Shown: positions 7,212 through 55,437, counted from the stretch's first letter. The stretch: DNA of 64,000 nucleotides from a virus (IMGVR_UViG_3300050821_002122:64001-128000), one strand, 5' to 3'. The notes: generated from the letters alone by a model not told the origin. Program-made: numbers and translations.

Positions 7212-7219
7212 TGGGTAAT

Positions 7220-7250
7220 GGGAGAAGGGTAGCAATATCCTTCTCCCTTT
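7220..7250 (+). terminator. Stem-loop, possible weak intrinsic terminator or processing site
   Basis: gggagaagg/ccttctccc 9-bp inverted repeat followed by a short T run, just after the fibre stop codon. Confidence 0.5.
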
Positions 7251-7271
7251 CACACAGAAAGAGAGTAAATT

Positions 7272-9381: not shown

Positions 9382-9639
9382 TCATACTCGCCTGAATTTC
9401 TCTGCGAAGTCGGACTCTGTAAAACTTCTGCAAATCCCACTAGGGTAGACTACTATCCAATCCCCTTCACTTATGACCTGAGTGGTTAGTCTGCGAAAGG
9501 TATTGGCCAATACTCCACGCTGTATGGATTTACCAAATACATGAGTTGACCAGACATTGCTTATCAGACCGCCGTAGGTTTCAATTCCATTCCAGCGCTC
9601 TGCCCAAACGTTGACTGGTACCGAAACGAACTGATCCAC
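9382..9639 (-). CDS. Hypothetical protein
   Basis: 85-aa ORF filling the gap in the minus-strand operon. Confidence 0.5.
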   Translation of the reverse strand: MDQFVSVPVNVWAERWNGIETYGGLISNVWSTHVFGKSIQRGVLANTFRRLTTQVISEGDWIVVYPSGICRSFTESDFAEKFRRV

Positions 9640-9649
9640 GGCTTAGCCC

Positions 9650-9937
9650 TTATTGCGGCAGCTGAACGATGTGGATGCCAGTCGTAACGCCACCAACAAC
9701 GGTCACGTCTTGCGTGTCCGTCAGGCTGCCTGAAGTGGCGGTAACTTGCAGCGTGCCGGCCATGGAGCCGGTGATCACTGCGGTTTTGCCATCAGCCGAT
9801 GGAACGATGGTTGCCTTGGTGGCATCCGATACCGTCCAGGTTACTGCGCCCGGCAGTTCGCCGGTTGGGTTGCCAGCAGCATCTGCGTCCAGAGTCAGAC
9901 CCAGGGTAACTGCTACGCCGGAAGTGAGGTTGATCAT
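9650..9937 (-). CDS. Single Ig-like (Big-type) domain protein
   Basis: VTWTVSDATKATIVPSADGKTAVITG...GTLQVTATSG pattern; aaagga SD before ATG at 9937. Confidence 0.7.
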   Translation of the reverse strand: MINLTSGVAVTLGLTLDADAAGNPTGELPGAVTWTVSDATKATIVPSADGKTAVITGSMAGTLQVTATSGSLTDTQDVTVVGGVTTGIHIVQLPQ

Positions 9938-10057
9938 TTTGATTCCTTTGAAGAGAAGACCAGGCGCTTTATAGACAATATGCAATGGGCCGCCCTTACA
10001 CCCAGTACATAATATGTGGCTAAGCCACATAAAGAGATTACAGAACATGATGTTTCC

Positions 10058-11698
10058 TTACCATGTGAGGTTACAGAGACCGTCAGAACCATCGCCACCT
10101 TTACCGCCAGCACCAGTAGACGTGGATATATAGCAAGCGCTGCCACCTCCACCACCCGCGCAGTTGCCAGCAGCATCCCCACCTGGTATACCTGCAGGAC
10201 CTGTTGCTCCGCGTGCCGCTGCACCGCCAGTACCGAATTGTGAACTCGCACCAGGACCACCTGCGCTGCCGAAGTAACCATCAGTGCCATCAGTACCACC
10301 TGGATTGCCACCAGCACCACCTGCACCTGATGCGCCACTCGGTGGACCAAATCCAGCACCTCCGCTAGCACCTTGACCACCGTTTAGCGTAAGTACTACC
10401 ACGCTGTTTACCGTAATTATTGTGGCGGCTCCGCTAGTACCGGCTGCACCATTGCCGCCTGGTGCAATACCACCAGCACCACCAAGGCCTTTTGCGCCTA
10501 CGGTAATGACCACGTTGTCACCAGGATTAACAGGAATAGTGACCCCAGTGGCTGTTTCAGCTACCCCACCTCCACCTCCGCCCCCACCAGCATTATATTC
10601 AGTACCTGGGGTGTGGTCCGGCGTTACGCCTGCGCCAGCGCCGCCAGCGCCACCTCCACCGCCGCCTGCGTCTGCATAGAGGAAATTGACTCCTGCTGGA
10701 ACGGTGAAGTTATAGGTGCCTGCCGTGGTGTGGGATAGCGACCTGGCAAGCACTGCTGCATGATCGATAGTCAGCGATAAAGTCGCCGTAGGACCGCTCA
10801 AAATCACCTGGCCAGTAGTGTCTCCGGTGACTATTAGCGTCGTCTGTAGTATGTCATTACAGAAGATAGCTATATTAGAACCCACCACAGGAGGTATATC
10901 CGTCAGCGCTGTGGTGAAGTGGAATGTTTGGTTGCCACCACTGGAGGTTACCGAACTGCATGCCCTCATATAGCCGTCTTCCGTCTCGATCACGTAGTTA
11001 CGTGGAGTAGACGTATTGTTGACGTTGATTTGAGCCGCAACGGTCACATCATTCAATGTGCCGCCTGTAACGATAGGCGTTGCCACCAGATGGTAGTTTG
11101 TACCCATGGACCAATGAGTATCTGTAGCCTGGTGAATCCATGACGAGTTGCCATTAGCATCCAGTTCACGCACCAGTATGGAAGGTATGTCCGGGTTCGC
11201 CGAAAGCGCAGGCGGATAGACATCGGCCCAGTGATCGACCTCCCAGATCATTGGAGGTTCTGCCATCAGTGTGTCGACCTTGAAGATCGCAACCGGCTGT
11301 GTCAGCTTGATCAGGCAATGGAACGTGTAGGTCGACAGTACATTGGTACCCAGGCTGCTGTATTTCGTTTGTTGAACGGCGAATGCAGCCTTTGCAAACA
11401 TCACGGGACCTGCAATGTCCAAAGCCACTTCACCGAAATTGAATGGACCGGCATCGGCTGGTATCTTGCAAATGACGTCCAGCGTATTGTCACCCACATA
11501 TTTGTAGGTCGAAGGTACACCGCTATAAAGCAGAGTACCATTCAGATCGGTATCCGTCGGCAGCGGATCGTAGCCGAACGCAGAACCTACCCTGAAACCT
11601 ATGATATTCACAAACGGACCAGTAGGGGTAGCTACTTCGGCCGCTGCCATACCGACGTTGGTGATAATCAGAAGGGGTGCTGTGAGAGGATCACTCAT
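10058..11698 (-). CDS. Baseplate-attached tail fibre/short fibre with Gly-rich C-terminus
   Basis: N-terminus LIITNVG...FNFGEVAL resembles fibre baseplate-anchor domains; GGGGGGAGG-rich C-terminal region. Confidence 0.7.
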   Translation of the reverse strand: MSDPLTAPLLIITNVGMAAAEVATPTGPFVNIIGFRVGSAFGYDPLPTDTDLNGTLLYSGVPSTYKYVGDNTLDVICKIPADAGPFNFGEVALDIAGPVMFAKAAFAVQQTKYSSLGTNVLSTYTFHCLIKLTQPVAIFKVDTLMAEPPMIWEVDHWADVYPPALSANPDIPSILVRELDANGNSSWIHQATDTHWSMGTNYHLVATPIVTGGTLNDVTVAAQINVNNTSTPRNYVIETEDGYMRACSSVTSSGGNQTFHFTTALTDIPPVVGSNIAIFCNDILQTTLIVTGDTTGQVILSGPTATLSLTIDHAAVLARSLSHTTAGTYNFTVPAGVNFLYADAGGGGGGAGGAGAGVTPDHTPGTEYNAGGGGGGGGVAETATGVTIPVNPGDNVVITVGAKGLGGAGGIAPGGNGAAGTSGAATIITVNSVVVLTLNGGQGASGGAGFGPPSGASGAGGAGGNPGGTDGTDGYFGSAGGPGASSQFGTGGAAARGATGPAGIPGGDAAGNCAGGGGGSACYISTSTGAGGKGGDGSDGLCNLTW

Positions 11699-11721
11699 TA
11701 TTTATTCCTTTGTTGTAGCAA

Positions 11722-12795
11722 TCAGAACAAACGTCCCGAAATGCAGTTGAGTGGACGGTTCTGTTGGTCCCGAGTTAAATTGAAGAAGTAGTTTGCGAGA
11801 CCAAAGCTCGGGTCTTGCAGAGTTGGGTACGTACCCAACGAAGTCGATGTGCCGACCGGGTCGCTCGCTATATCGCTCCAGCTTAGGTTCATGATACCCG
11901 TACCTGGTGCTCCGCCAAAGATTTCCAACCCGCCTTCATGAATAGCCCTATAATCAGGATAGAATTTGAAGAACCACTTACGGGCAAGCAGATTAGGCGT
12001 AGAGGTCGCGTCCGTTACCAATATGCCGTTGATTCGGAATTGCGAACAGCGTTGATACACAAAGCCCCATGCACCACATTCCCAACCCATCAGACCAAAA
12101 ACTGTCGTGTTGTCCGTGATATTGATAACACTACCGAACAACTGCAAATTAGATCGCGTACCTTGCCCAGCGGTAATGAAATCTACAGCACCAGTTGCAT
12201 GGGCACCACTTGGCAAATTAATCCAGACGCCCATAAGAATAACTTGACTATCTATGTTGCTAGGGCTTGCAATAAGAATGATACCAGCTTGACCACTCGA
12301 ACCAACATCAATGCCTACATTGATAATTGGCCTCTGAAGATCTGACATGTCACATGGTCGAGTAGTGCCATTGGCAAGCGGACCATCGAAGTCTCCGTAT
12401 TGGGGATCACCATAAAAGGTCAATTGTATGGTACCATAGCACGGGAAACTGTCGACAGTAGTGAATGTCTCACCAGCTTTCAATGCTATTATGGTAGATG
12501 CGTTAAAAAACCCGTTGGCCAAATCGATCAGGTGATGGAGTGTAAAATCAAGGGTCTTAAATGGCAGAGCCTTACTACCGTCGTTGGGAGCACCATCAAT
12601 ACCAGCTGCCGCAACATAGTACACCTGCTTTAGCAGTAATGGTCCTGCGTATAGGCCATCAGGATTATTGCGAAGCAGATTGTAGAATACACCGCTCAAA
12701 GGTACTGCGCTGGAATCCAACGCTTCGCCCGTACTGAGAGGGCGATGAGTTGCTGTTGCGTTGTCGTAGACTACGGGTGGGAGTATAGTGGGCAT
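11722..12795 (-). CDS. Putative tail/baseplate structural protein
   Basis: 357-aa ORF inside the baseplate operon; YYVAAAGIDG...KTL motif of fibre-like proteins. Confidence 0.5.
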   Translation of the reverse strand: MPTILPPVVYDNATATHRPLSTGEALDSSAVPLSGVFYNLLRNNPDGLYAGPLLLKQVYYVAAAGIDGAPNDGSKALPFKTLDFTLHHLIDLANGFFNASTIIALKAGETFTTVDSFPCYGTIQLTFYGDPQYGDFDGPLANGTTRPCDMSDLQRPIINVGIDVGSSGQAGIILIASPSNIDSQVILMGVWINLPSGAHATGAVDFITAGQGTRSNLQLFGSVINITDNTTVFGLMGWECGAWGFVYQRCSQFRINGILVTDATSTPNLLARKWFFKFYPDYRAIHEGGLEIFGGAPGTGIMNLSWSDIASDPVGTSTSLGTYPTLQDPSFGLANYFFNLTRDQQNRPLNCISGRLF

Positions 12796-41707: not shown

Positions 41708-42091
41708 TCAGAGTAGGAAACAACTTACTTGATCGATGATACGCTCACCATCCCATTTCAACACGTAGAGACAATTGGCTGGGAGCAAAAGTTCATCCGA
41801 AGTGAAATACGCATCAGTGATGAGGTGCATGCCAAACATGGTAGCTACATACCCGGTAAGAACTTCCTCACGGCTTCGGGGCTCGATAGCCACTATGAAT
41901 CCATCGCTACCCATTACTGACCCGTAGGTCTTGGAGCCAAAGGCAACCACAATATCGCCTTTTGTTTTCTTGGTTAGCGACTGGTGCATGGATGCCAACA
42001 ACTGAATCGAAAATGGTAAATCGAACTTCGGCTCAGTTCCAGTAGATTGATCGACCAAGCTAAGGATTGATTTGATGTCTTCGGTTTTCAT
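41708..42091 (-). CDS. Hypothetical protein, paralog of 37419-37814
   Basis: IEPRSREEVLTGYVATMFGMHLITDAYF versus IDPYGEKEIVDKGVMAVLFGMDILTPAFY. Confidence 0.6.
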   Translation of the reverse strand: MKTEDIKSILSLVDQSTGTEPKFDLPFSIQLLASMHQSLTKKTKGDIVVAFGSKTYGSVMGSDGFIVAIEPRSREEVLTGYVATMFGMHLITDAYFTSDELLLPANCLYVLKWDGERIIDQVSCFLL

Positions 42092-42411
42092 TAGACCGCC
42101 ATAGGCGCTTTGATAGCCGCATGATGTTTATAGTTCAGTAGATGGATATCGTTTGGAGCAAGTCCGCTGACTAATTCATCGAGCGACAAGATTGTAGCCC
42201 CAACAGGAACCACTATATCGAGTTCGGGCGGATCGAATGGCTTCCGGCTCAACTGTTCTTCCACCTGATCCAAATGGTTCACGTAGATGTGGGTATCCGA
42301 TAGGAACATCGTCAGCGTTGCTGCGGTGCGGCCAGTCCAGGCAGCGAATAGTCCCAGCAGCAGTGCATAGCCGGCGATGTTGAATGGTGCGCCCAAAAAT
42401 AAATCTACTGA
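42091..42411 (-). CDS. thyA: Thymidylate synthase, exon 2 (106 codons plus stop)
   Basis: Begins TCA GTA GAT (SVDLFLGAPFNIAGY); DTHIYVNH; ends IKAPMAV. Confidence 0.93.
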   Translation of the reverse strand, partial: SVDLFLGAPFNIAGYALLLGLFAAWTGRTAATLTMFLSDTHIYVNHLDQVEEQLSRKPFDPPELDIVVPVGATILSLDELVSGLAPNDIHLLNYKHHAAIKAPMAV

Positions 42412-43541
42412 CATTATGTTCGATGTGGTTCGCGATACCACACCCGCTAGCTTTGGGCCTCAGCTAACTGCTGCATGTTACCATGCAGAGCAGACTATAT
42501 CACGCTCCTACAAGGAGCCCTTTCTTTTCGAGTGCGCTTGCACCCTACTCTACTTGCTTCCGCACATGCGGGCTTTCGATAGTCGTTAGGCATTTAATCT
42601 ACATACGAGTAATCTGGATAATTCTTGGAACGAATACGATTTAGGATGGTTGCGGTAACTACACCAAGTTTTCTTGCTGCTGCTGTCATGCTTACGTAGG
42701 TTTTTTTACCAATTCGAACCCTCCGCGTGTTGGGAGGAAGTTTACCTTTGTTAAGCTCTGACAAAAGCTGTTTTGTTTTCTTGGTATGTACTTTACCAGC
42801 GAACGAATTCACGTAATCATCGGCAGCCACTCGTGCCAATGCTGATTTTCGATAATTTTCTCTGGCTTCAGGTGTAGTGATGCGCCCGACAGCCTTTTGA
42901 TTACCTAACATGGCATCTGAAAGAATCTTTCTAACTTTTTTAGTATGCGTGTTTCCATACATACCGTTAAGCTCACCAGGTCTGCCCCACGTTTCATCTC
43001 GTTCGTCTTGAGTCATTGCAGCGATGTTCTTATGCATTGTGGTTTTGATCTGCGCTATTATTTCAGTGCGCCTACCATTACGCGTAAGATTATCACCACC
43101 GACAGCGCGCATTCCAATAGTCAATGCTTTTTTATTTTGAAGATTTTTTCGTATTAATTTATCTTCAAGTTTATAAGCATCTCCCCTATCAAGTAGTTTT
43201 ACCACGGTAAAAGTCAGATCAGACGCACCATATTTATCATACAGTTTTTGTAACTTCTGATTTATATGGTCACCACTTGCCAATGCCTTAAGGTGGCCTC
43301 TCTTCCGCGCTCGCATGTTTTTTGAACTACCGTGATAGAATTTTCCAGTTGCTGCACTCGTTATTTTGTAAACACCGCATAGTATTTTCATGACACCTCC
43401 CATTTGGTAGCATCATTAAATTGTGTAGCTAAAAGCGATGTCTAGAATGTAGATATTTAGCACGGGATTGGGTCTGTGACCGTTCCCCGTTTAGAAAGGT
43501 TTGCTAGATAGGTTGCCCTATCAAGGCGCTCAGTGTATCGA
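42412..43541 (-). mobile_element. Self-splicing group I intron (T4 td-like, IA2), 1130 nt
   Basis: Exon 1 ends in U and intron ends ...GAACATAATG; core strings CGGGGAA, AATCCCGTGCTAAAT, TAAATGCCTAACGACTATC, GATATAGTCTGCTCTGCATGG; IGS ACTGAGCGC pairs with both exons. Confidence 0.93.
42594..43391 (-). CDS. Intron-encoded GIY-YIG homing endonuclease (I-TevI-like architecture)
   Basis: GVYKIT...KFYHGSS...R...H; NUMOD3-like basic repeats; C-terminal HTH; GGAGG SD before ATG 43391. Confidence 0.9.
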   Translation of the reverse strand: MKILCGVYKITSAATGKFYHGSSKNMRARKRGHLKALASGDHINQKLQKLYDKYGASDLTFTVVKLLDRGDAYKLEDKLIRKNLQNKKALTIGMRAVGGDNLTRNGRRTEIIAQIKTTMHKNIAAMTQDERDETWGRPGELNGMYGNTHTKKVRKILSDAMLGNQKAVGRITTPEARENYRKSALARVAADDYVNSFAGKVHTKKTKQLLSELNKGKLPPNTRRVRIGKKTYVSMTAAARKLGVVTATILNRIRSKNYPDYSYVD

Positions 43542-44165
43542 ACGCATGAGCATTGTCATATGCAAAGTGCCATCTGAGCGCGGCAGGAATTGGAAACTCA
43601 TGTGGCACGCAGGCAAAGCGATCTTATCGATTACCGCCGGATTCCACGCAGTGACGATGATGCGGCGGCTCTGGCTATTGTTCCGAATGTCATTCAAGGC
43701 GTTAGCCAATTGGTCGATACGTTGCTGGGCCACAATGCCGGTTTTGCCTTCCCAGACAAAATCAAATATGGGCATCAGGTGGTCCGGCAAGAAAGGTGCC
43801 TCAGTTAGAATTTGTGGCTGACCTGCCCAGTTACGCCACTGACTGCCGTAGACTGGTCCCAGATCGTCTACGCCTTTACGGTTCGGATTGGCCAACCACG
43901 CAGCGTTCTCGTTGGCGTTCTGATCCCAGACCTTACACCCGTTTGCCCTGAACTCGGCTGCTGATGTGGCGCCATTCAGGAAGCTGATGTATTCACCCTT
44001 GACTGAATCGAAGGCCAGCTTCTTGGTTGTGGTTGCTGGGAAGCCGTCGCGCAGATCGTAGCGCAGCATCTCACCTGGTGTAGTGATCGTGTCGATGCCA
44101 GTACGGTTGGGTTCACGCTGGCCGACGGTCAAAACGTGCTTCATCAAATCTTGGTAGTTTTTCAT
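43542..44165 (-). CDS. thyA: Thymidylate synthase, exon 1 (208 codons)
   Basis: NRTGIDT, GFPATTTKK, LGPVYGSQWR, SRRIIVTAWNP, LPACH; ends at ...MR; spliced product 314 aa. Confidence 0.95.
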
Positions 44166-45413: not shown

Positions 45414-45733
45414 AGGTCCGCCATATAGATAGCTGACGGACGCATGCTGATCCTGTAGTCGCCGTCGTAGACATTGAAGTCTTCGACTGGGCCATCGTTG
45501 ACTGTATCGGTCTTCAACACATAGTGAACCTGACAACCAGCAATCGTTGTGTTGCCGACCTGCATGTACCAATTGGCGGACTTACCGTTTGGCCTGATAC
45601 CCAACGTATCCTCGGCTGTGCAGACACCATTTAGGGTGCCGAAGATAGCTCGGTACTGTTTGCCGTCAGCACCATAGAACCAGCTGTCTACGGTCACCAG
45701 AACTTTGTCACCAACCTGAGCGTTAATCATCAT
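45410..45733 (-). CDS. Conserved phage hypothetical protein
   Basis: WFYGADGKQYRAIFG...NWY..VGN..IAGCQVHY. Confidence 0.6.
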   Translation of the reverse strand: MMINAQVGDKVLVTVDSWFYGADGKQYRAIFGTLNGVCTAEDTLGIRPNGKSANWYMQVGNTTIAGCQVHYVLKTDTVNDGPVEDFNVYDGDYRISMRPSAIYMADL

Positions 45734-46260
45734 TGCACCATGAATGGTATGTGGAAGTGCTTCAGAGCCAACTCAACCTGCAGAGTGGACCAATCGAAAA
45801 GCGGGTACACGTATTGCTGACCATGTTCACCCAGTTCGAGGTACATGGGCATTTGTTCGATTGGCCACTGTACACCCCTGACGTCAAGCGTCTTACCTGG
45901 ATGGCGATCCATACGCAAACCACTGATGCACGTAATAAGACCCATTTCTTTAGCGTCAGCAGCCGCAGGCGCCGAGTAGTAATACTGCGTCAGCGTCTTG
46001 GTAAGCTCAGGCGCAGTAACACCAGGTTCGATGTTGAATACAACCGGGCATCCGATGCTGGCCTCACCAAGCAGTTCCATTATAAGAGTCGATGAGCGGC
46101 CACCGCTGTGTGCAACGTAGAGGCTATCACGGTCAAACGGGATTGCCTTCAATCGCTTGATGGTTTCTTCGATCATACCTGGTACAGTGCCGGTCATGAA
46201 TGCCAGGTATTCAGGAGTATGGCCTTGAGCAGCCAAGTAGCGGTCATCGATCAGTTGCAT
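45730..46260 (-). CDS. Degenerate PP-loop (PAPS-reductase-like) protein
   Basis: VAHSGGRSS (Asp of SGGxDS lost) and YPLFDWS; paralog of 51781-52371. Confidence 0.6.
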   Translation of the reverse strand: MQLIDDRYLAAQGHTPEYLAFMTGTVPGMIEETIKRLKAIPFDRDSLYVAHSGGRSSTLIMELLGEASIGCPVVFNIEPGVTAPELTKTLTQYYYSAPAAADAKEMGLITCISGLRMDRHPGKTLDVRGVQWPIEQMPMYLELGEHGQQYVYPLFDWSTLQVELALKHFHIPFMVQ

Positions 46261-46441
46261 TGTCGTCTCCATCGTATGGTGGTGGGGTTTGGGTCTGCGT
46301 TTCTCCACACATGGGACAACCGTCCTGCGTGTAGTGAATGTTGTCCACAGTTTGGATATGTGCAGGGTACCAATTGCCGCACAAACACTGTGCTACAATC
46401 TGAGGTTTATCTTTGCATGCCTTCCAGTCCAAGACCATCAC
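46244..46441 (-). CDS. Small Zn-ribbon protein
   Basis: CLCG...CPMCG. Confidence 0.5.
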   Translation of the reverse strand: MMVLDWKACKDKPQIVAQCLCGNWYPAHIQTVDNIHYTQDGCPMCGETQTQTPPPYDGDDNATDR

Positions 46442-47124
46442 GTTGCTCCTTTGGTTTGCTCCACCATACGGTAGAATTCTTCTTTTAGGGATTTGTCGGT
46501 GCGCATTTCACCACGCATCACGGAGGTGACCATACGACTACCTTGATCCTTCACACCGCGGTGGCCGCAGCACAAATGATTGCCCACGACCATAACGGCC
46601 AGACCTAATGGTTCGGTCAACGCCTCCAGCTCATTAGCTATCTGATCTGTAAGTTCCTCCTGAATTTGCGGGCGGCTTGCTATATGAGCCACGATGCGAT
46701 GGAACTTGGAGAGGCCGATCAGTTTGTCTTGAGGTAAGACACCGATGTAGGCCTGTCCGGTAATAGGTACCAGATGGTGGGCACATGAGCTACGCATATT
46801 AATGGGGCCAACGACGTATAGCTCATCGACCTTATTCACGTTAGGGAATTCAGTGACATCGGGCATCGGAACATACCGACCGTTGAAGGTCTCCAATACC
46901 AGCATCTTGGCAAAGCGACGAGCGGTATCTGCCGAGTTATGATCGTTCTTCGTGTCGATGACCAGCGACTTTAGCACTGCCTGCATTTTGGTAGCAACCT
47001 CATCGACCAACAGTGGTATGTCTTTCTCATCGATTGCCGACGAGATGTTGTCGTTGCTGAAGAACCGCATTTTACCTGCTGCGAGTCGGTCACGAATAAC
47101 ATCACTGATTGGTTTGATTTTCAT
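46438..47124 (-). CDS. folE: GTP cyclohydrolase I
   Basis: SSCAHHL, LIGLSKF.RIV, RPQIQEELT, HLCCGHRGV; ATGA overlap with queE. Confidence 0.95.
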   Translation of the reverse strand: MKIKPISDVIRDRLAAGKMRFFSNDNISSAIDEKDIPLLVDEVATKMQAVLKSLVIDTKNDHNSADTARRFAKMLVLETFNGRYVPMPDVTEFPNVNKVDELYVVGPINMRSSCAHHLVPITGQAYIGVLPQDKLIGLSKFHRIVAHIASRPQIQEELTDQIANELEALTEPLGLAVMVVGNHLCCGHRGVKDQGSRMVTSVMRGEMRTDKSLKEEFYRMVEQTKGAT

Positions 47125-47909
47125 GCGATCCCCAGAAAAATATGTGCTTGAATACTGACGTTGATAGAGTGCTTCAGTGCGTAGGCTGCCGCGTATTGGA
47201 AGTTTGCTGCGGTCTGTACTTTGTCCACCAAGCCGTCTTCCCAGATGGAAGAAACTTCGCCCATGTACGCCTTCTGATAGATCACCATAGGTGACACGTA
47301 TATAGGCTTGTGGCTTTCTAGCGCCCAATCAGGAACCTCATGATGCGGGTTGTCTGGATCAGCAGATATAACAAACTTAAGGCAGTTAGCCCACCAGAGG
47401 ACGTCGTTGTTGATTTTCGGATACTTGCCAGTATTGACATTTGCTTTAGGCGAAACAACCGATACGAAACGTTTGGTCATCTTGCGACGCACTGCCTCCA
47501 AGTAGAACTTGGGCTGCGTACCGTTGGTTTCCAGTTGGATCGTCTCGAACATCGGCTCTGCCAAAACGATCAGATCGAGTAACGCCAGTTGCAACGTTGG
47601 TTCTCCGCCTGTGATGACCAGTATCTGTTTCTTGTTGTAGCCCTGGGTCATGATGAAGTCTAGCAACTCCTGCGGAGTGTAGGCATTAGCAGTATCGAAC
47701 TGGAAACTGGTATCGCAGAAGTGGCAGAAATCAGTCTTCGATCCGTAGTTGCAGCCAGCTAGGCGCACGAACATAGCTGGACGGCCCACCAAAGGACCCT
47801 CACCTTGATGCGTTGCGAAGACAGACGAAACCAACAGGCGACCATCCAGCGCCTTGTAATCTCGCGCAGATACATTGCGATCTGCGTTTTGGGGAATAAT
47901 TGGGATCAT
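47121..47909 (-). CDS. queE: 7-carboxy-7-deazaguanine synthase (radical SAM)
   Basis: QGEG..VGRPAMFVRLAGCN, CX8CX2C cluster motif, ITGGEP, ETNGT, VSPK. Confidence 0.9.
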   Translation of the reverse strand: MIPIIPQNADRNVSARDYKALDGRLLVSSVFATHQGEGPLVGRPAMFVRLAGCNYGSKTDFCHFCDTSFQFDTANAYTPQELLDFIMTQGYNKKQILVITGGEPTLQLALLDLIVLAEPMFETIQLETNGTQPKFYLEAVRRKMTKRFVSVVSPKANVNTGKYPKINNDVLWWANCLKFVISADPDNPHHEVPDWALESHKPIYVSPMVIYQKAYMGEVSSIWEDGLVDKVQTAANFQYAAAYALKHSINVSIQAHIFLGIA

Positions 47910-47918
47910 GGTAATTCC

Positions 47919-48275
47919 TCAGTAGATCATTTTGTGATGGTCCTTGGTCTCGGCCAACTGGATACCATCGGATTTTGATTTGACGACTGCAGGTTTAAGT
48001 TCGCGTATGAAGCCCTTTATGAGCATAACCTCTGCATCGCGCTTCGGACGTACTGTTGACCGCATGTATAGACCTCGCGCATAAACAGCATCGCAGATCG
48101 GGATACCACAGACCTTCAGAGTGTCAACGTGATCGTAGATATATACATCGTTCGGTTTGCCAGCTTTGACCCAAGCATACACTGACTTGTAGGTCTCCTT
48201 GTCGATCCTGCCAAAGATCAGGCCACCTACTCGGCGTTTGACCTTACAGGAATTTGCGACTATGGAATTTTTCAT
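47919..48275 (-). CDS. Hypothetical protein within modification cluster
   Basis: 118-aa ORF between TGT-like gene and queE. Confidence 0.5.
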   Translation of the reverse strand: MKNSIVANSCKVKRRVGGLIFGRIDKETYKSVYAWVKAGKPNDVYIYDHVDTLKVCGIPICDAVYARGLYMRSTVRPKRDAEVMLIKGFIRELKPAVVKSKSDGIQLAETKDHHKMIY

Positions 48276-49530
48276 AGCTCCTCAGTATCTTGGTATAAAG
48301 TTCTTGATTGGGGACCTTACCCGTTGACCGAAACAACGACTTGGTCGTATTGGATTGTCGCAGGGTAGTGAATTTATCTTTCTCGATAATAGACTCAGCA
48401 TACTTAACAAACTTGTGGAATTCGTTGTACTTGAGCGTCAGGTTCAGTGTCTTGTAAATCTCTTCCAGCTTCACTGTGCCTTTAACGTACTGGTAGGCCA
48501 TGTCACTCATCAGCTTAGCCCACTGTGCGCGCACCCACAGGTTGTGGGCCTCCAGTACGTAGGTGTTGTTGACGATGCGGATGTCATCCAGCGCAAAGCA
48601 AACCGGACAGTTACAGGGCATCGCTTGGTGGTAAGTCTGTTTCTTGTGTAGGCTTATCGTCTGGAAGTCGTAAGTGTCGTACATGCCAACCAAAGCACCA
48701 AGGCGATGGCTAACCGAGTCGGCACCAATCGATTTGACGTAGCCTGACGAATCGAGCAATGCGTATATAAACAGCCAGAACTTGGAGGTGATACCAAGCA
48801 CATGGAAGTAGCGAGCGGATTTGTGGTAGCGTTGAACCACATACATCAAGCTCTCTAGAGCAGTGGTCACGTGATCGACGCCAGGAGCAGGTTTGATACC
48901 CAGACCTGCGATGGCTATAACCCTAGCCTTACGGTCTAGAACATCCAAGCGCGATTTGCGCCGAGCTAACGTTGATCCGTGACTGATGATTGCGAGATCG
49001 ATACCTGGCTTCAGATGCTTCAACATGAAGTCATCGTTGGCTTTAATCATCTTCGACACTGGGTCCCAGAACATATGCTCAGCAGCCGACGGCACCGGCA
49101 AGTCAAGGGGCATTGCGATGTTCGCCTTCACGTTGTAAAGCTTGACGAGATTGGTTGGGTCAACAAAGTCGACCGTACCTTTCAGCATTTGAAAGCCGCC
49201 GCTATCAACAATCGATTCGATGCCTTGCTGCTCGAATGGTTCTTTGATGAATCCACCGTGGATAGGATTGGCCAGAACCTTCGTGATGCCGCAGTTCTTT
49301 AGGAAGGACGAACTCAATGTTGGTACGATGACGTCGGCTTGGTCCTTCGATGTGACGCCACCGCGTGTAGAAGTATTGACGACAACGATGGTCTTCTCCT
49401 TCGCTCGCCATCTCTTGTACAGCTTACCGTGTTCGGATGTCTCCGCTTCATTTGGTTTGTTGGTAATCTGTATTTGAGTTGTGCGATCAGAGTAGCCCTC
49501 ACCACCGGCAGGAACGTAGCAGAGAGTCAT
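48244..49530 (-). CDS. TGT/DpdA-family guanine transglycosylase
   Basis: IVDSGGFQ, PLDLP, ISHG, AIAGL, FHVLG, GADSVS and Zn site CNCPVC...HNL. Confidence 0.85.
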   Translation of the reverse strand: MTLCYVPAGGEGYSDRTTQIQITNKPNEAETSEHGKLYKRWRAKEKTIVVVNTSTRGGVTSKDQADVIVPTLSSSFLKNCGITKVLANPIHGGFIKEPFEQQGIESIVDSGGFQMLKGTVDFVDPTNLVKLYNVKANIAMPLDLPVPSAAEHMFWDPVSKMIKANDDFMLKHLKPGIDLAIISHGSTLARRKSRLDVLDRKARVIAIAGLGIKPAPGVDHVTTALESLMYVVQRYHKSARYFHVLGITSKFWLFIYALLDSSGYVKSIGADSVSHRLGALVGMYDTYDFQTISLHKKQTYHQAMPCNCPVCFALDDIRIVNNTYVLEAHNLWVRAQWAKLMSDMAYQYVKGTVKLEEIYKTLNLTLKYNEFHKFVKYAESIIEKDKFTTLRQSNTTKSLFRSTGKVPNQELYTKILRSYEKFHSRKFL

Positions 49531-49555
49531 ATAGTCTTTCGTGATTAGATACTAC

Positions 49556-49563
49556 TATTTACT
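49556..49563 (-). promoter_or_regulatory. Candidate phage promoter motif AGTAAATA
   Basis: Lies between a terminator and the TGT-like start; same or similar motif at 24100, 54717, 57570, 37416. Confidence 0.4.
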
Positions 49564-49568
49564 GCGAC

Positions 49569-49600
49569 AAAAGGCACTGCTCTTGTTAGGAGTCAGTGCC
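49569..49600 (-). terminator. Intrinsic terminator
   Basis: ggcactg/cagtgcc stem followed by tttt on minus strand. Confidence 0.65.
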
Positions 49601-49608
49601 CAGTTGTC

Positions 49609-50700
49609 TCACAGGTCGAGTAGTTCGTTGATGATGTTGTCCATGCCGGAGGTATCGAGCGGCAACTTCGGACGCGGTGTATCGAATCGGCTTATCCACT
49701 TGCACGCCTGCTCGAAATCATCACCGTTCAAGCGCATGTTGAACTGGTACTGCCGAGTTACAAACTCATCGTGACTTAGGCCTGTTGATAGCAATGGTAC
49801 ACAGCCGTAGTGGACTGCTTCGGCTATGCAGTAGCCATAGTTCTCTTCAATTGAGTGCGAGACCATCATGTAAGCTTCAGCCAATTCGCGGTGATACTGC
49901 TCTTTGGTGAGACCGGGTTTGATGGTAATGATGCCGGCAGCAACCATGTTATTGAGCAGAAGGTTGTCCTCAACGCGACCGCGGAAGCCCGGTCGCCCGG
50001 TGCAGACCACAAATTCCCAATCAGGGAATTTATGCTTCAACTCCCTGAAAAGTTTGAGTGTCAAACTTGGTCGCTTCTCGTGGTCAAAGCGATTGGTCAG
50101 CACGACCTTTTTCTGCTTTTTTACGGCACCGAAATCATGGTATTCATCAAGGAACAGAGGATTCTTCGTGACCACGATTTTAGCCGGCCAGGCAGAACCG
50201 GTTAAACCACGCCGAGTAATAACGACTTGTTGATGATATTTGGAGCCCACGAAGACCTTATCCAACGCACTTAACCAGCCAACCTCGGTGTACTGCTGGT
50301 ACTCCTCTGCGATAGAGAACGCATCCTCTTTGGTATAGGATGCTGCATGCAGGAAGCCCGTCAGCTTCACATCTTTTAGGCCATTCATTTGAGCCATCAG
50401 CTTTACCGATTCCAAGCCCCAGAATTCGATATCACCGAAGAAGAAAATGTCGTCATTGCGGACTTCGCCACAATGGAACATGCGCGCGACTTCCTGCAAC
50501 TGCGTCATCTTGTAGTGGACGGTCGAGTTGATATCCAAGAAGGCGCCGACCTTAATTTCGTTGTCCAGTAGCGGCTTACCCTCTATGGTAAGAACCTCAA
50601 AGCCGAATCGCTCGAAGGCGAGTGGAAAGTTGCGGTACCATTGCTCCGTATAGCGCTCGGTGATAGGCTCGATAGGGACCATTATGATTCGACGTTTCAT
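49609..50700 (-). CDS. GT-B glycosyltransferase 1
   Basis: NRFDHEKRP and EENYGYCIAE (ExxxxxxxE-type retaining GT motif). Confidence 0.8.
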   Translation of the reverse strand: MKRRIIMVPIEPITERYTEQWYRNFPLAFERFGFEVLTIEGKPLLDNEIKVGAFLDINSTVHYKMTQLQEVARMFHCGEVRNDDIFFFGDIEFWGLESVKLMAQMNGLKDVKLTGFLHAASYTKEDAFSIAEEYQQYTEVGWLSALDKVFVGSKYHQQVVITRRGLTGSAWPAKIVVTKNPLFLDEYHDFGAVKKQKKVVLTNRFDHEKRPSLTLKLFRELKHKFPDWEFVVCTGRPGFRGRVEDNLLLNNMVAAGIITIKPGLTKEQYHRELAEAYMMVSHSIEENYGYCIAEAVHYGCVPLLSTGLSHDEFVTRQYQFNMRLNGDDFEQACKWISRFDTPRPKLPLDTSGMDNIINELLDL

Positions 50701-51119
50701 AGCTCGGTATCTCCTTCAAATTCGTCTGGGGTGGTAGCGATAAAGTTTCTAGCCGCAACACACAGTACCTCACGCTCTGGTGAATGGAACTTGACCTGAT
50801 CGTCCTCCCACAAGTTTGCCACTGAATTGAAGTACTCCTGCGGCAACGTCAGCATCAGGCTCACGTTGCTAGGTCTTCGCATGTTTTGCTTACCGCAGAC
50901 CTTCGTCACTTCGATGGTAACCTGCTTGTTCTCAAACATGTTACCGACAGCCTCATAGTTCAGCGTGTTACCGTGATCGCTAACGTAGAGGTGGTTGGTG
51001 CAATTTTCTTTCAGTAGGTCTTGGATGATATGTTTGTTGGTGATCAATTCCACAGCGCTAACGAACAGCGTCTTTACGCCACGCAAGCGCCCTTCGCATT
51101 CTACCCCGATCTTAGCCAT
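50697..51119 (-). CDS. Conserved hypothetical protein in modification cluster
   Basis: GVECEGRLRGVKTLFV N-terminus; translationally coupled on both sides. Confidence 0.55.
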   Translation of the reverse strand: MAKIGVECEGRLRGVKTLFVSAVELITNKHIIQDLLKENCTNHLYVSDHGNTLNYEAVGNMFENKQVTIEVTKVCGKQNMRRPSNVSLMLTLPQEYFNSVANLWEDDQVKFHSPEREVLCVAARNFIATTPDEFEGDTEL

Positions 51120-51788
51120 TTAAGCCTCCACAGTAATATTGTCGTAGGTGACTGTCACCTTACCGGTGCAGATAGCCAGCAAGTCATTCATAAATTCCCT
51201 GCGGTTGTGACCAAATTGACCACCTCGGTTATTTGTCAAATGCCAACCGAGTACCTTATCGACATCGTTCACTGGCACAGTGACGGCTAGCGTACGGCCG
51301 CTCGGCTGCGTCCATGCCAGCGTGCGGTACTCGTCGTAGTCAGTTTCCTGTATGTCCTCAAACAGCCAGTATTTGTCGTTGTTCTCCCATAGCGATGCCT
51401 GACTAGGATAAATATCGTTAAGTAGTTTTTGTTTGGCTCTTGGTACCTGTACCAACTTACCGCATGCCATATCAACGCTATAGAACTTGGTGGCCTTATT
51501 ACGATATTTTGCGTTGACCATCTTGTGGTCCGCATGCCAATCTTTGCGACTCGGGACATAGACCTCGTGGTACCCATCAGGAATTTCGTAAGTATTGAAG
51601 TCAGCGAACTCCAAATCGAAACCAAAGGATGCACAGCACACCAGGGCTTCTGCCTTGCGTTCATCGGTCAACTCAAAAAAGTAGACGACCGACACAGTTA
51701 CTTCAGGGTCCAGTAAGACCGACCAGCAGCCGATGACCTCATCGTCTGCGTGCGGTGCTAAGATCAATACCGGCTGGCGCCTAATCAT
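51120..51788 (-). CDS. PIG-L/LmbE-family de-N-acetylase
   Basis: LAPHADDEVIGC and DWHADH Zn motifs. Confidence 0.8.
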   Translation of the reverse strand: MIRRQPVLILAPHADDEVIGCWSVLLDPEVTVSVVYFFELTDERKAEALVCCASFGFDLEFADFNTYEIPDGYHEVYVPSRKDWHADHKMVNAKYRNKATKFYSVDMACGKLVQVPRAKQKLLNDIYPSQASLWENNDKYWLFEDIQETDYDEYRTLAWTQPSGRTLAVTVPVNDVDKVLGWHLTNNRGGQFGHNRREFMNDLLAICTGKVTVTYDNITVEA

Positions 51789-52371
51789 GATAGTACTCCG
51801 GCGATACTGGGATGTCGTAGTGGAAAATCGCAGCCCATACTTCTTCGTCGGACCAGTCGTAGATCGGGTAGCAGAAATTCTGACCAAATAAACCACTAGT
51901 TAGATACAGCGGGGTCTCCGTGCGTGAGACTTCTCTACCTTCGACGATCAGGCCAATGTCGCGGCCATCACGACGATCAGCCTCAGCGACGCGAGTACCA
52001 TCGATTTGCACTTTGTAACCAAGTCGAGGTAAGTTCTCACCATCCGGTACGTACAGAATTGGACGATTCAGGCTGTACAGAAATTCTTTAGTCAGCGGAT
52101 GGACCTCATTGCGAATACCGCTAGGCTTCGGAGTGTGGATAGTCATCACGCCGGGACCAAGTGCGCGGTCAGTGAGCCAGCGCACGAGGACCGAGTCTTT
52201 GCCGCCGCTGTGGCCAACGTAGACGACGCTTCCAATAATACGAAATGGCATACCGAAGATACGCTGACCGGCCTCTTCCACTAGCGTATGGATACTCGCT
52301 GTGGCGTCACACAGTTTATTACGATCCAGTGCCTGACGTTCGATGATGATATTTTGAATTCTGGAATCCAT
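51781..52371 (-). CDS. PP-loop protein (PAPS reductase/AANH superfamily)
   Basis: GHSGGKDS, DGTRVAEADRR, YPIYDWSDEEVWAAI. Confidence 0.8.
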   Translation of the reverse strand: MDSRIQNIIIERQALDRNKLCDATASIHTLVEEAGQRIFGMPFRIIGSVVYVGHSGGKDSVLVRWLTDRALGPGVMTIHTPKPSGIRNEVHPLTKEFLYSLNRPILYVPDGENLPRLGYKVQIDGTRVAEADRRDGRDIGLIVEGREVSRTETPLYLTSGLFGQNFCYPIYDWSDEEVWAAIFHYDIPVSPEYYHD

Positions 52372-52372
52372 G

Positions 52373-53734
52373 TTATTTTCCTTTGAATAGTTTGCGGGTA
52401 GTGGTCTTCGGCTGCTGATTCTTAACAGGCTTTACACCGGTGTGATAGTAAAGCGTGCCCTTTACTACCGTGGTCTCTACACCTAGCTTACGAAGACCGT
52501 GATAGTAGTCACTCCAGAATGTATTTACTGGCTGACGTCCGGTGGCAGACCATCCCATTACTGCGTAGACTTCTTGCTTCGTCAGCGCCTTCTTGTCGAG
52601 CGCCTTCATGACGAGCGCGATCTTTGGGCTCTTTGTAGATGCACGCTCAAGGCGCTGACCGAATACATCGACTAACCGGGCACTTAGTTTCTTTTTGTAC
52701 TGCTCGGTATTGGTGATTTTCGCCAGACCTTGTGCTGTGTATTTAAGGACCTTATCGGCGTAACCTTTTTCGGTTACCAAGCGATGCAAACGCTCGGGTA
52801 CTTCTTTTGCCTTCAGCGTAGTCTTATCACCTATGATTTTCGTATAGGCTTCGTTGCAAGGCAGATTGAATATCGCCAAACCATAACGTGCGCTTTCTAG
52901 AATGGAGATGCCGTAACTCTCTGCCGTTGACGTGCCAATGGTGACATTTGCGTCCATTAGCGATTGCTCATAAGCTGCGTCGTCATAGGCAAAGGGACGC
53001 TGCTCGGTGACCGCAGCCAGGCTCTTTGGTACTATTTTCTTGATCTCGTCGGATGTCAAGGACGACAGCAAAATGATCTTAATTGGCACCTTTGGGTACC
53101 GTGTGTGGAAGTCTTCTATTATGCCAAAGAACGCCTTTGGATTCTTTGCAGCATTCAGGCGGTGATTCCACAAGAATGTCAAGGTTTTGAAATTCTTCTT
53201 GATGTCCTTGGGCGGCTCAAACTTGTACAGGTCTGGAGGAGGCAAGACCAACATTTTAGATTCCACTACCTTGAGGGCATTCTTAGACCACAGCTTCGGC
53301 AATTCGATATTCATCAGAGTATCGCGCAGTACAGGCGACACCATGATAACATCAGAAACAAGCATTGAGGCAAATATATCCAGCATATGGGCTTTATTCT
53401 TTTGCCACCGCGTGTCCAGCAAATCCATCCCGTAGTGCCCGTGCGCTATACGCATCACCTTCAAGAAGTCTTGGAAATAAGCACCATGGTTACCAGAGAA
53501 GTTCAGTAGCTCGTTGAAGCTCAATGCATCTTCGGCGTAGAAGAAATCCGAATCGCAGTTCCAGAAGTCTATGGTTTCGTATGCCTGTCGCGTGTTCATA
53601 ACCGAACGCGGATTAAACAACGTCAGCCGTGTGTTGTCGTATAGTTTGTTGGCGAGAACGCGGTAGTGAGGAACGAATTTGTTCTTGTTGGCATTCGTTT
53701 CCTCAATGCCGAATATATTCAGAGTAGGCTTCAT
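52373..53734 (-). CDS. GT-B glycosyltransferase 2 with C-terminal basic/wHTH-like extension
   Basis: WNHRLNAAKNP, AESYGISILE; C-terminal LTKQEVYAVMGW...YYHGLRKLGV. Confidence 0.75.
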   Translation of the reverse strand: MKPTLNIFGIEETNANKNKFVPHYRVLANKLYDNTRLTLFNPRSVMNTRQAYETIDFWNCDSDFFYAEDALSFNELLNFSGNHGAYFQDFLKVMRIAHGHYGMDLLDTRWQKNKAHMLDIFASMLVSDVIMVSPVLRDTLMNIELPKLWSKNALKVVESKMLVLPPPDLYKFEPPKDIKKNFKTLTFLWNHRLNAAKNPKAFFGIIEDFHTRYPKVPIKIILLSSLTSDEIKKIVPKSLAAVTEQRPFAYDDAAYEQSLMDANVTIGTSTAESYGISILESARYGLAIFNLPCNEAYTKIIGDKTTLKAKEVPERLHRLVTEKGYADKVLKYTAQGLAKITNTEQYKKKLSARLVDVFGQRLERASTKSPKIALVMKALDKKALTKQEVYAVMGWSATGRQPVNTFWSDYYHGLRKLGVETTVVKGTLYYHTGVKPVKNQQPKTTTRKLFKGK

Positions 53735-53787
53735 TATGCGTCCAAGGCAAAAGCCCTGACCTGATGGTGCAGGCCAAGGCTCGTGGT

Positions 53788-54249
53788 TTAAATAGTTTGA
53801 ACTGGTATTGCCTTGACATACTCCAGCGTCGCACCGTTGATGTTGTCCTCCAGTACCGAGACTTTGATATCACGCCCCTTGTATTTGTCGGCGATGCGGC
53901 CAATCAACGACTCAGCAAGCATCTCGCACGATTGACTGTTCAACTTCATGACGCCTTGATCGTAGAGGCGCTGGCACCAACGGCTGAATTGGATAAATTC
54001 GATATCGCGGTCATTTTGGAAAACTTCGACAGTGACCTTGAACGTGAAGTAGTGGAAGTGAGGTGACGCCAAGAAAGAAACGTCATCCCATTCTCCGGTT
54101 GCCAGATTTGGATCGGTAGCCGCAGCAGGATAGCAGTGTACGCCTTCCTTGACGAACTCAACATGAATCCATCGTTTCATAAGCGGCTGGCTTACAAAGT
54201 CCACACCTTTGCTATCGGGTATGGAGGTCTTTTGATTTGGTTTGAACAT
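53788..54249 (-). CDS. Second QueD-like T-fold protein (DpdL-like candidate)
   Basis: EGVHCYPAA, FLASPHFHYF (LxxxHxHxF), DRDIEFIQF, SCEMLAE; ggag SD before ATG 54249. Confidence 0.7.
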   Translation of the reverse strand: MFKPNQKTSIPDSKGVDFVSQPLMKRWIHVEFVKEGVHCYPAAATDPNLATGEWDDVSFLASPHFHYFTFKVTVEVFQNDRDIEFIQFSRWCQRLYDQGVMKLNSQSCEMLAESLIGRIADKYKGRDIKVSVLEDNINGATLEYVKAIPVQTI

Positions 54250-54250
54250 T

Positions 54251-54697
54251 CTATTCTCCGAGGTAGATTGCGCTGTTGCTGCCGTGTTCCGAAACCTGTG
54301 CCGATACGAGACGCACTCGCGGCGCATGACCACTGCCTTGTAACCACTGGTTGGCTATGTCGTAGGCCATACGAGCGAATGCCTCGCAGCCGACTGCCTC
54401 GACTACCAGCAGGTCCAAGATGCCCTCTTGGCACATAGCCTTAAATTGGTCAAGCTTAGGATCGTCCTTTGCGACCAGCGTCTTGTGATCGAAGTGACTA
54501 CGATAGATAGCCTCCACTTCCTTCAGTGCGCCGAAATCGACAACCCAATTGCGTTCGTCCAATTCGGTGGCCTCGAAGACCAACTCAATGGCGATAGCGT
54601 AACCATGTACACGGGCACAATGCGATGCTGCCCGCCATTGCCTGAATGCGCAACTGAGGCCTCGCTCATGGCCCCATTTCTTGGTAGATCGAAACAT
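54251..54697 (-). CDS. queD: 6-carboxy-5,6,7,8-tetrahydropterin synthase
   Basis: SCAFRQW...HCARVHGY, VVDFG.LK, FDHKTLVA, GCEAFA, EHGSNSA. Confidence 0.9.
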   Translation of the reverse strand: MFRSTKKWGHERGLSCAFRQWRAASHCARVHGYAIAIELVFEATELDERNWVVDFGALKEVEAIYRSHFDHKTLVAKDDPKLDQFKAMCQEGILDLLVVEAVGCEAFARMAYDIANQWLQGSGHAPRVRLVSAQVSEHGSNSAIYLGE

Positions 54698-54722: not shown

Positions 54723-54914
54723 CTACCCGAGCGTATGTGACTCTGGGTCACTACGTGCTGCGCGCATATGGGTGTCGCCGCAGTTCGCGCAAGGTATCCG
54801 TGCAACGATCTGAAGAATCGTGATGTCGAATTTTGCATGACTGCGATATATGTGACCGCATTTGCATTCGACGGTGTATTCTGGGTATTGGTCTAGGTTG
54901 GTCCAGTCAATCAT
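54723..54914 (-). CDS. Small Zn-ribbon protein
   Basis: CKCG...CANCG; ggag SD before ATG 54914. Confidence 0.55.
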   Translation of the reverse strand: MIDWTNLDQYPEYTVECKCGHIYRSHAKFDITILQIVARIPCANCGDTHMRAARSDPESHTLG

Positions 54915-55437
54915 GATTTCTCCCTGCAGGTTTAGGTAAATATCCCTTCTTATGAAAGATAGTTTTTGCAGCAAAATACGCTGCGCTTGCAGCTTTGGCA
55001 GTGTCAAACCTACCAAGATAGTAATATTTACCGTTGAGACCGATTCGTGACATGAATACCCCATTCAGTTTCGTTACACCAAGCAGACCTGTCTTATTAC
55101 GCCTATGGGCAATTACCTGATTCTGTTGATTCACAGAATTAGTAGTTGCCCTAAGGTTGGACCAACTATTATTTTGCTTATTTCTGTCTTTATGGTCTAC
55201 CATATTTTCAGGGTAGCAACCTCTGACGAATAAATAGGCTAACCTATGAGCTTTATACGCCAATCCATGAATACGAATAACGACATAGCCTTTAGCCAAA
55301 GTACCCGCCGTAGTACCTTGTTTAGCTCTGGTAGCTATCGTTATTCGCCACGTAAAAGAGCCCGTAAGTTTGTCATAACGTAAAAGCGACATAAGCTCTC
55401 GGCGAGACAACTCATTTTTCTTTTTGAGTTTTGGCAT
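54907..55437 (-). mobile_element. Free-standing HNH-AP2 homing endonuclease
   Basis: YD..TG.FTW, AHRLAY, VDHKDRNKQNN..NLR, G..GV, YLGRFDT...A..AY; AT-rich. Confidence 0.85.

Follow-up and report, generated by a model that had tools for sequence, protein, structure and literature searches.

Does a phage that replaces guanine in its DNA also put a sugar on the replacement base? The question arises from a 64,000-nucleotide stretch of viral DNA (IMGVR_UViG_3300050821_002122:64001-128000; hereafter the window, with positions counted from its first letter), which belongs to a 189,689-bp IMG/VR virus record estimated to be ~80% complete. On the minus strand of the window, from 54697 to 45730, twelve densely packed genes combine a 7-deazaguanine pathway with two glycosyltransferases (GT1 and GT2), an LmbE-type de-N-acetylase and a PP-loop protein. 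A sequence-only reading of the window had proposed that this cluster decorates a deazaguanine in virion DNA with a sugar, perhaps a de-N-acetylated amino sugar. On the profile, structure-model and genome-comparison evidence assembled here, a functional link between the deazaguanine pathway and sugar chemistry is well supported, because GT1 is nearly confined to deazaguanine gene clusters, close relatives of its module partners are exclusive to that setting, and fusions exist in which LmbE is joined to DpdL, a T-fold protein of the pathway. To the product that this coupling suggests, a glycosylated and probably amino-sugar-bearing 7-deazaguanine in virion DNA, we assign about an even chance.

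Results

Linkage of GT1 to deazaguanine genes

GT1 (49609-50700; 363 amino acids) is established, at the level of profile and structure model, as a retaining GT4-type GT-B enzyme that uses a nucleotide sugar. Its match to PF00534 scores 30.3 bits against a cut-off of 26.4 bits, and the AlphaFold2 (AF2) model, with a mean predicted confidence (pLDDT) of 91.7, has the two Rossmann domains of the GT-B fold. The nearest solved structures by Foldseek are MshA, BshA, glycogen synthase, GtfA, LmbT, SenB and PimA, with E-values of ~1e-11 to 1e-12 for MshA, BshA, PimA and GtfA. The E-x7-E motif is placed at E286-x7-E294, with E294 invariant in 36 sequences, and R204, E208 and K209 are conserved.

Relatives of GT1 were found on 344 IMG/VR contigs. 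Eighty loci were fetched and their open reading frames (ORFs) called, and 79 were analysed with hidden Markov models built from the cluster proteins. A deazaguanine marker (DpdL, FolE, QueE, a DpdA-like protein or YhhQ) lies within 10 kb of GT1 in 76 of the 79 loci, and the three loci lacking one are cut or short contigs. Among the loci in which GT1 is flanked by 3 kb or more on each side (n=63), DpdL lies within 3 kb in 58 (30 of 38 GT1 clusters at 80% identity) and a DpdA-like transglycosylase within 5 kb in 55. In GenBank phages searched by tblastn, all good matches to GT1 adjoin a DpdL homolog (ACP17, the PA5oct group, Phosso, BUCT-ZZ01, X1/BUDD and BCSR5), and among 185,579 prokaryote genomes GT1 was met on six contigs only, all from metagenome-assembled genomes. 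Co-occurrence had been set beforehand as a test on which the sequence-only reading could fail, and the glycosyltransferase, LmbE and PP-loop families do track dpdA-like genes strongly.

The company that GT1 keeps varies in an informative way. One clade (L025-L028, ~9500-12700 on these contigs) carries GT1 without FolE, QueD or QueE, in the order PolA, a 150-aa u140-like ORF (DpdL in L027), GT1, a 300-aa weakly DpdA-like protein and a Vut_1 (PF02592) transporter. PF02592 is the family that we take to be YhhQ, responsible for queuosine-precursor uptake, and the arrangement suggests that this clade salvages a deazaguanine precursor. The 150-aa protein, present in L023-L028, resembles u140 by position and motif; hhalign gave a relationship between the two a probability of 0.8%. 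In 41-42 marine or PA5oct-like loci, GT1, DpdL and the DpdA-like protein are accompanied by an NAD-dependent epimerase/dehydratase (PF01370) and a phosphoribosyltransferase (PF00156), for example at 10648-11612 of L004. Given the phosphoribosyltransferase, that clade may reach the modified base at the nucleotide level; in the genome of the phage under study, unlike in the PA5oct clade, neither an epimerase nor a phosphoribosyltransferase was found. A methyltransferase family accompanies GT1 in 32 loci.

A conserved module and LmbE-DpdL fusions

GT1 forms a module with the PP-loop protein, LmbE and a conserved 140-aa protein (u140). The order of these genes is shuffled among the ~17 phages that carry the module, which include the window, BCSR5, X1/BUDD and roughly a dozen IMG/VR contigs. 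The PP-loop protein has its close relatives only beside LmbE, u140 and GT1, and its distant matches are ordinary phage 3'-phosphoadenosine-5'-phosphosulfate (PAPS) reductases without deazaguanine genes; close relatives of LmbE, u140 and GT2 are likewise restricted to the module. On six contigs LmbE and DpdL are a single ORF, with the LmbE catalytic domain N-terminal, DpdL C-terminal and the motifs of both intact (L011, 8651-9562; L014, 7794-8534; L015, 7535-8278; L016, 4415-5161; L017, 4449-5207; L107, 8097-8990). On strong support, a genuine GT4 enzyme, an LmbE-type hydrolase whose metal site is intact and an adenylating enzyme of the PP-loop type are genetically locked to deazaguanine genes.

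These observations bear directly on two explanations that would keep the sugar away from the deazaguanine in DNA. According to the first, the DNA contains plain 2'-deoxy-7-deazaguanine (dDG), or else the deoxynucleoside of 7-carboxy-7-deazaguanine (dCDG), and the GT4, LmbE and PP-loop enzymes act on another DNA base, or on a host envelope glycan or protein, being merely co-regulated with early DNA-metabolism genes. Phage phi19:2 makes dDG with DpdL and without a glycosyltransferase, 7-deazaguanine has no obvious acceptor atom, the fold matches of GT1 are generic for GT4, and a ThyA-family gene lies 1.5 kb from the cluster. Co-regulation, however, does not explain a linkage to pathway markers that persists although the phages are very divergent and their gene orders shuffled, nor the LmbE-DpdL fusions, nor GT1 beside a presumed YhhQ-type transporter in phages without the biosynthesis genes; the ThyA, moreover, matches thymidylate synthases of the ordinary kind, and its GAPFN motif contains the Asn that specifies uracil. 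We regard this explanation as unlikely. Glycosylation of cytosine or hydroxymethyluracil as the principal reading was rejected on similar grounds, given the uracil-specific Asn of the nearby ThyA and the fact that GT1 tracks DpdL.

The second explanation places the sugar chemistry on a small molecule and never on DNA, the product being a soluble glycosylated deazapurine or pterin (of huimycin or pterin-glucoside type) or a base with a sugar that serves as a temporary handle and is taken off ahead of insertion. T-fold enzymes use free bases or pterins, the LmbE-DpdL fusion suggests a common small-molecule substrate, HuiG acts on a free 7-deazapurine, and pterin glycosides, too, are made by a set of FolE, a 6-pyruvoyltetrahydropterin synthase-like protein and a GT-B enzyme. 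Opposed to it are the DpdA-like transglycosylase close to GT1 in most full-flank loci and the clade that has dispensed with FolE, QueD and QueE and yet retains a DpdA-like gene and the YhhQ-type transporter; GT1 therefore goes with the base and with the enzyme that inserts it rather than with pterin synthesis. Genes for export or regulation were not seen, and a soluble metabolite would be of no obvious benefit to the phage. We consider this explanation distinctly unlikely. The fusions, the linkage preserved despite shuffling and the YhhQ clade carry the strongest weight against both alternatives.

The deazaguanine core

The core of the cluster is a pathway to 7-carboxy-7-deazaguanine (CDG). 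QueD (6-carboxytetrahydropterin synthase; 54251-54697) matches PF01242 at 1.6e-18, QueE (radical S-adenosylmethionine CDG synthase; 47121-47909) matches phrog_2076 at 9e-37 as well as PF04055, and FolE (GTP cyclohydrolase I; 46438-47124) matches PF01227 at 2.2e-45 over residues 113-289 of a 296-aa ORF. The phage QueD has CxxxHGY in place of the canonical CxxxHGH, as does QueD of phi19:2. The variant was present in all seven phage QueDs compared, that of phi19:2 included (the window protein and those of L001, L002, L003, L007, L090 and L092). QueC (PF06508) had no match across the 190-kb record, itself ~80% complete, when 13 of 14 control genomes were matched; without QueC, 7-cyano-7-deazaguanine (preQ0) is therefore not made.

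The second T-fold gene (53788-54180) had been labelled QueD-like in the sequence-only reading. The fold assignment holds and the label does not: by sequence the protein is a member of the DpdL family and a predicted CDG decarboxylase. Its motif, L-ASP-H-F-H-Y-F, has Leu at the position of the QueD Cys, and alignment shows that Arg of the DpdL signature LxxxHRHxF is replaced by Phe here, as in PA5oct and Ahp1. Identity to gp040 of the Cellulophaga phage phi19:2 is 31% (E 4e-10). FolE, QueD, QueE and DpdA are encoded alongside, in a record in which QueC was not found, and this is the company expected of a DpdL. The family was proposed to decarboxylate CDG to give dDG, with the signature LxxxHRHxF set against CxxxHGH of QueD, and dDG was measured in the phiST species to which phi19:2 belongs (PMC10516641). 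The proposal of a glycosylated deazaguanine stands as regards the coupling of sugar chemistry to the pathway, for which the linkage and the fusions speak. DpdL had gone unrecognised in the sequence-only reading, and its assignment moves the likely core base from CDG towards 7-deazaguanine and makes the site of sugar attachment less obvious.

The transglycosylase (48244-49530) belongs to the superfamily of DpdA and tRNA-guanine transglycosylase (TGT). It has the motifs IVDSGGFQ, GADS and PCNCPVC...HNLW, with invariant zinc-site residues C306, C308, C311 and H329, and its profile matches the archaeosine TGT (ArcTGT, 1iq8) at 5e-6 with VDSGxFQ and the zinc site CxCxxC...H aligned. The protein is 53% identical to its BCSR5 homolog. 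Three mutually remote DpdA-like families were found with GT1, and hhalign (92-96%) connects the types of ACP17/X1 and of PA5oct remotely with this DpdA. There is no detectable similarity to DpdA3 of phi19:2, and no assignment among the subfamilies DpdA1-4 was obtained. Between dpdA and the queE/folE pair stands u118 (47919-48275), a conserved 118-aa protein without Pfam match that has homologs in matching position in BCSR5, L012, L092 and L093. A CDG-producing pathway without QueC, together with DpdL and a TGT-fold transglycosylase, is in sum strongly supported.

Because ArcTGT, the only solved relative of the DpdA profile, is a tRNA enzyme, one may ask if the transglycosylase acts on tRNA and the module makes a glycosylated queuosine-like tRNA base. 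Glycosylated queuosine does occur in animal tRNA. In the window, however, no tRNA genes were found, and the genome has no match to PF12038 (QTMAN_N). The phage clusters of FolE, QueD, QueE and TGT tested to date all modify DNA (PMC10516641), and PA5oct DNA is resistant to restriction enzymes with G in their sites (PMC12191111). A tRNA target is very improbable.

Comparison with the DpdL-type modification of phiST and phi19:2 (Cui, Hutinet et al., NAR 2023, PMC10516641), in which the product is dDG, shows what is shared and what is added. Both systems have FolE, QueD, QueE, DpdL and a TGT-fold enzyme without QueC, and the window and phi19:2 have in common the DpdL motif LxxxH(R/F)HxF and the CxxxHGY of QueD. 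The window differs from phi19:2, which lacks GT1, LmbE, the PP-loop protein and u140, by four to six extra enzymes between dpdL and dpdA.

Proteins of the sugar module

LmbE (51120-51788) is assigned to the LmbE/PIG-L-type metal-dependent de-N-acetylases. It is filed as LmbE-like because its metal and catalytic motifs are intact, despite a sub-cut-off Pfam score: APHxDDE and DxHxxH are invariant in 14 homologs and appear here as APHADDE and HADH.

The PP-loop protein (51781-52371; phrog_2302, phrog_424) is a small PAPS-reductase-like ATP pyrophosphatase with SGGKDS and a PAPS-reductase-type C-terminal motif, YPIYDWSDEEVW. In profile comparison CysD (1zun) was matched at 1e-6, with further matches to FAD synthase and PAPS reductase; QueC was tried as an identity and discarded, PF06508 giving no match. 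A degenerate paralog at the far end of the cluster (45730-46308) has SGGRSS, has lost the QIDGxR motif and is 25% identical to the BCSR5 PP-loop protein. It was seen in this phage only, and a second PP-loop copy was not present in any other analysed locus.

The PP-loop protein invites a variant of the glycosylated-deazaguanine model, in which it adenylates the carboxylate of CDG for amide formation with the glucosamine amine exposed by LmbE, the sugar is thus held at C7 through a carboxamide, and DpdL binds CDG and does not decarboxylate it. The absence of QueC, with a PP-loop enzyme in its slot, agrees with this scheme, as do the precedent of RoyL, which forms amides of CDG and amines, the fusion of LmbE to a CDG-binding T-fold, and the succession of GT4 enzyme, LmbE and ligase known from mycothiol and bacillithiol synthesis. 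The protein, however, is PAPS-reductase/CysD-like and not QueC-like, the acceptor of GT1 would still be undefined, and most loci with GT1 and DpdL are without the PP-loop protein or LmbE, so the scheme is not the general role of GT1. We rate this variant as quite improbable.

GT2 (52373-53734) is a putative GT4-like glycosyltransferase of 453 aa with the E-x7-E motif ESYGISILE. The protein itself gives no significant Pfam match, PF20706 being weak (0.023), and the assignment comes from its family (n=12), in which PF00534 is found in 8 members (best 1.2e-5) and PF20706 in 11; a profile search of solved structures gave BshA as best match at a non-significant E of 0.62. A conserved C-terminal extension of ~70 aa is carried by GT2, which has 11 metagenome homologs (P0003-P0013); two of its three IMG/VR relatives are placed inside the module (L107, L108), and tblastn with GT2 found no match. 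A QTMAN/GTDC1-like identity was rejected, since PF12038 is without match at E <= 10 in the genome.

In BCSR5, a Burkholderia phage and the nearest relative in GenBank, the gene order is the same except that an AAA_28 protein (ATPase/kinase-like; 8138-9064 of L001) occupies the position of GT2. In the closest relative, L092, the slot between dpdL and the PP-loop gene contains a family-2 glycosyltransferase (GT-A) and a DUF2264 protein (5857-7900). With GT2 here and other contents in L092, the slot looks like a variable second tailoring position. A second glycosyltransferase of ~450 aa was also seen beside the DpdA-like gene in BUCT-ZZ01 (L007, 6364-7707) and on two IMG/VR contigs (L036, 6992-8359; L063, 6974-8332); not being in the GT2 family, it appears to have been gained independently. 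Achromobacter phage Motura has QueC and an AsnB-like protein between queD and dpdA, and no GT1 in its genome.

u140 (50697-51119) is conserved among modules and present in each full one, with G5, E7, E9, G14, D48, E70, K110 and D137 invariant. Its AF2 model is of moderate confidence (pLDDT 80), and neither ESM Atlas nor Foldseek nor VIA-align yielded a convincing structural match.

Gene boundaries and neighbouring genes

The gene list and the minus-strand coordinates given in the sequence-only reading proved correct, every named gene being present. The co-orientation and translational coupling claimed there are consistent with spacing in the twelve-gene block, where genes overlap or are separated by 0 to ~130 nt, mostly by less than 80 nt. 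The true starts of dpdL (54180), lmbE (51788) and folE (47124) probably lie inside the longest ORFs; for FolE, an internal Met of the 296-aa ORF abuts the queE stop codon. The cluster had no megablast match among GenBank phages. A scan for promoters and terminators found fewer sites than in shuffled sequence, and Rfam at gathering threshold gave no match in the window.

Immediately upstream of queD stands a free-standing gene resembling HNH_3 homing endonucleases (54907-55437, minus strand; PF13392 5e-13), which separates the cluster from a conserved 334-aa gene common to BCSR5 and Motura. On the other side, the thymidylate synthase gene is split (42091-44165, minus strand). Exon 1 (43530-44165) takes the profile as far as position 169 of 266 and is followed by a GIY-YIG-type ORF (42594-43403), and exon 2 begins at ~42415 (SVDLFLGAPFN...). 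A sub-threshold match to the group I intron family RF00028 is found at 42471-42744 (21 bits, E 0.011).

Discussion

The proposed pathway begins with steps that are supported by family assignment. FolE, QueD and QueE convert GTP into CDG, DpdL would process CDG, probably to 7-deazaguanine, and DpdA would exchange guanine in DNA for the modified base. The further steps are drawn from gene linkage. With a nucleotide sugar as donor, GT1 may attach a sugar of N-acetyl-hexosamine type to the deazaguanine. Its acceptor would be either the free base, ahead of insertion by DpdA and in a queuine-like logic, or dDG already in DNA. LmbE would then strip the N-acetyl group and expose an amine, the PP-loop enzyme might perform an ATP-dependent adenylation or ligation step, and GT2 would add a second sugar in this lineage. 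The end product is envisaged as a bulky, possibly cationic base that would block restriction enzymes and other DNA-reading nucleases.

Several known systems supply parts of this logic. In mycothiol and bacillithiol synthesis (MshA/MshB/MshC and BshA/BshB/BshC), a GT4 N-acetylglucosamine (GlcNAc) transferase, an LmbE-family deacetylase and an ATP-dependent ligase follow in the same logical order, and GT1 finds its best structural matches in MshA and BshA; the systems differ in acceptor and product, and the ligase candidate here is a PAPS-reductase-like PP-loop protein located in a phage DNA-modification operon. Mannosyl- and galactosyl-queuosine of animal tRNA show that a GT4-related enzyme (QTMAN/GTDC1) can put sugar on a 7-deazaguanine derivative, although there the sugar is attached to the cyclopentenediol of queuosine in tRNA. 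HuiG of huimycin synthesis, a GT4-type enzyme, places GlcNAc onto a 7-deazapurine, and RoyL of roseomycin synthesis is a PP-loop enzyme joining CDG to amines in amide linkage; both are precedents by chemistry and come from actinomycete secondary-metabolite clusters without a transglycosylase (bioRxiv 10.64898/2026.04.15.718813). The glycosylated pyrimidines of phages (glucosyl-5-hydroxymethylcytosine in T4; arabinosyl-5-hydroxycytosine in RB69 and DLP3; PMC13326640) are likewise the work of viral GT-B enzymes of MshA/BshA-like fold, with further glycosyltransferases that extend the glycan and tailoring genes that vary among relatives. They start with a ThyA-like deoxycytidine monophosphate hydroxylase or hydroxymethylase and modify cytosine, whereas here the glycosyltransferase tracks guanine replacement and is joined by LmbE and the PP-loop protein.

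A number of points weigh against the glycosylated base. In the phages with GT1, a sugar on the deazaguanine is predicted from gene linkage, and 7-deazaguanine is without an obvious oxygen or nitrogen nucleophile at C7 for sugar attachment. Decarboxylation by DpdL is itself a prediction, and DpdL and DpdA of ACP17 gave no dDG in E. coli, a failed reconstitution for which "other" further enzymes were invoked (PMC10516641). The fold matches of GT1 are generic, validated phage DNA arabinosyltransferases also matching BshA and MshA (PMC13326640), and with these top matches shared the donor sugar is read from the presence of LmbE alone. LmbE scores 19.7 bits against the PF02585 cut-off of 28.2 bits (E 1.3e-3), most GT1 loci have neither LmbE nor the PP-loop protein, four DpdL lineages are without adjacent GT1, and u140 and u118 have no place in the scheme.

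We found no published description of glycosyltransferase-deazaguanine coupling, nor one in work on PA5oct, ACP17, BCSR5 or MIJ3. A review of jumbo phages mentions deazaguanine as predicted only, and the study that reported the restriction resistance of PA5oct DNA did not assign the modification (PMC12191111). Taken together, the linkage is strong and the chemistry is predicted, and the system is understood, with partial support, as a widespread variant of known phage DNA hypermodification. That many phages (>340 viral contigs, including the PA5oct/Paride group, ACP17, BCSR5 and Xanthomonas phage X1) have a sugar-bearing 7-deazaguanine, we propose tentatively, at slightly less than an even chance. 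The sugar in the lineage of the window would on this proposal be a de-N-acetylated amino sugar, which the PP-loop enzyme would process further and to which a second glycosyltransferase would add.

Lastly, the finding has importance for the chemistry that phages can bring to their DNA. The 7-deazaguanines known from phages have small substituents and known DNA glycosylation concerns pyrimidines; a sugar-bearing deazaguanine, if true, would join both and constitute a new chemical class in DNA. Such a base, a glycosylated purine analogue, would be a first for DNA of any kind, and the module making it would mirror the chemistry of mycothiol and bacillithiol. The module would also offer concrete candidates for the further enzymes invoked after the ACP17 experiment. 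Two families of possible use as DNA-tailoring enzymes are defined here, a GT4 family restricted to viruses and a small PP-loop family, and with cultured carriers at hand the idea is directly testable. If correct, it could explain the G modification in jumbo phages of the PA5oct type, a group being studied for therapeutic use.

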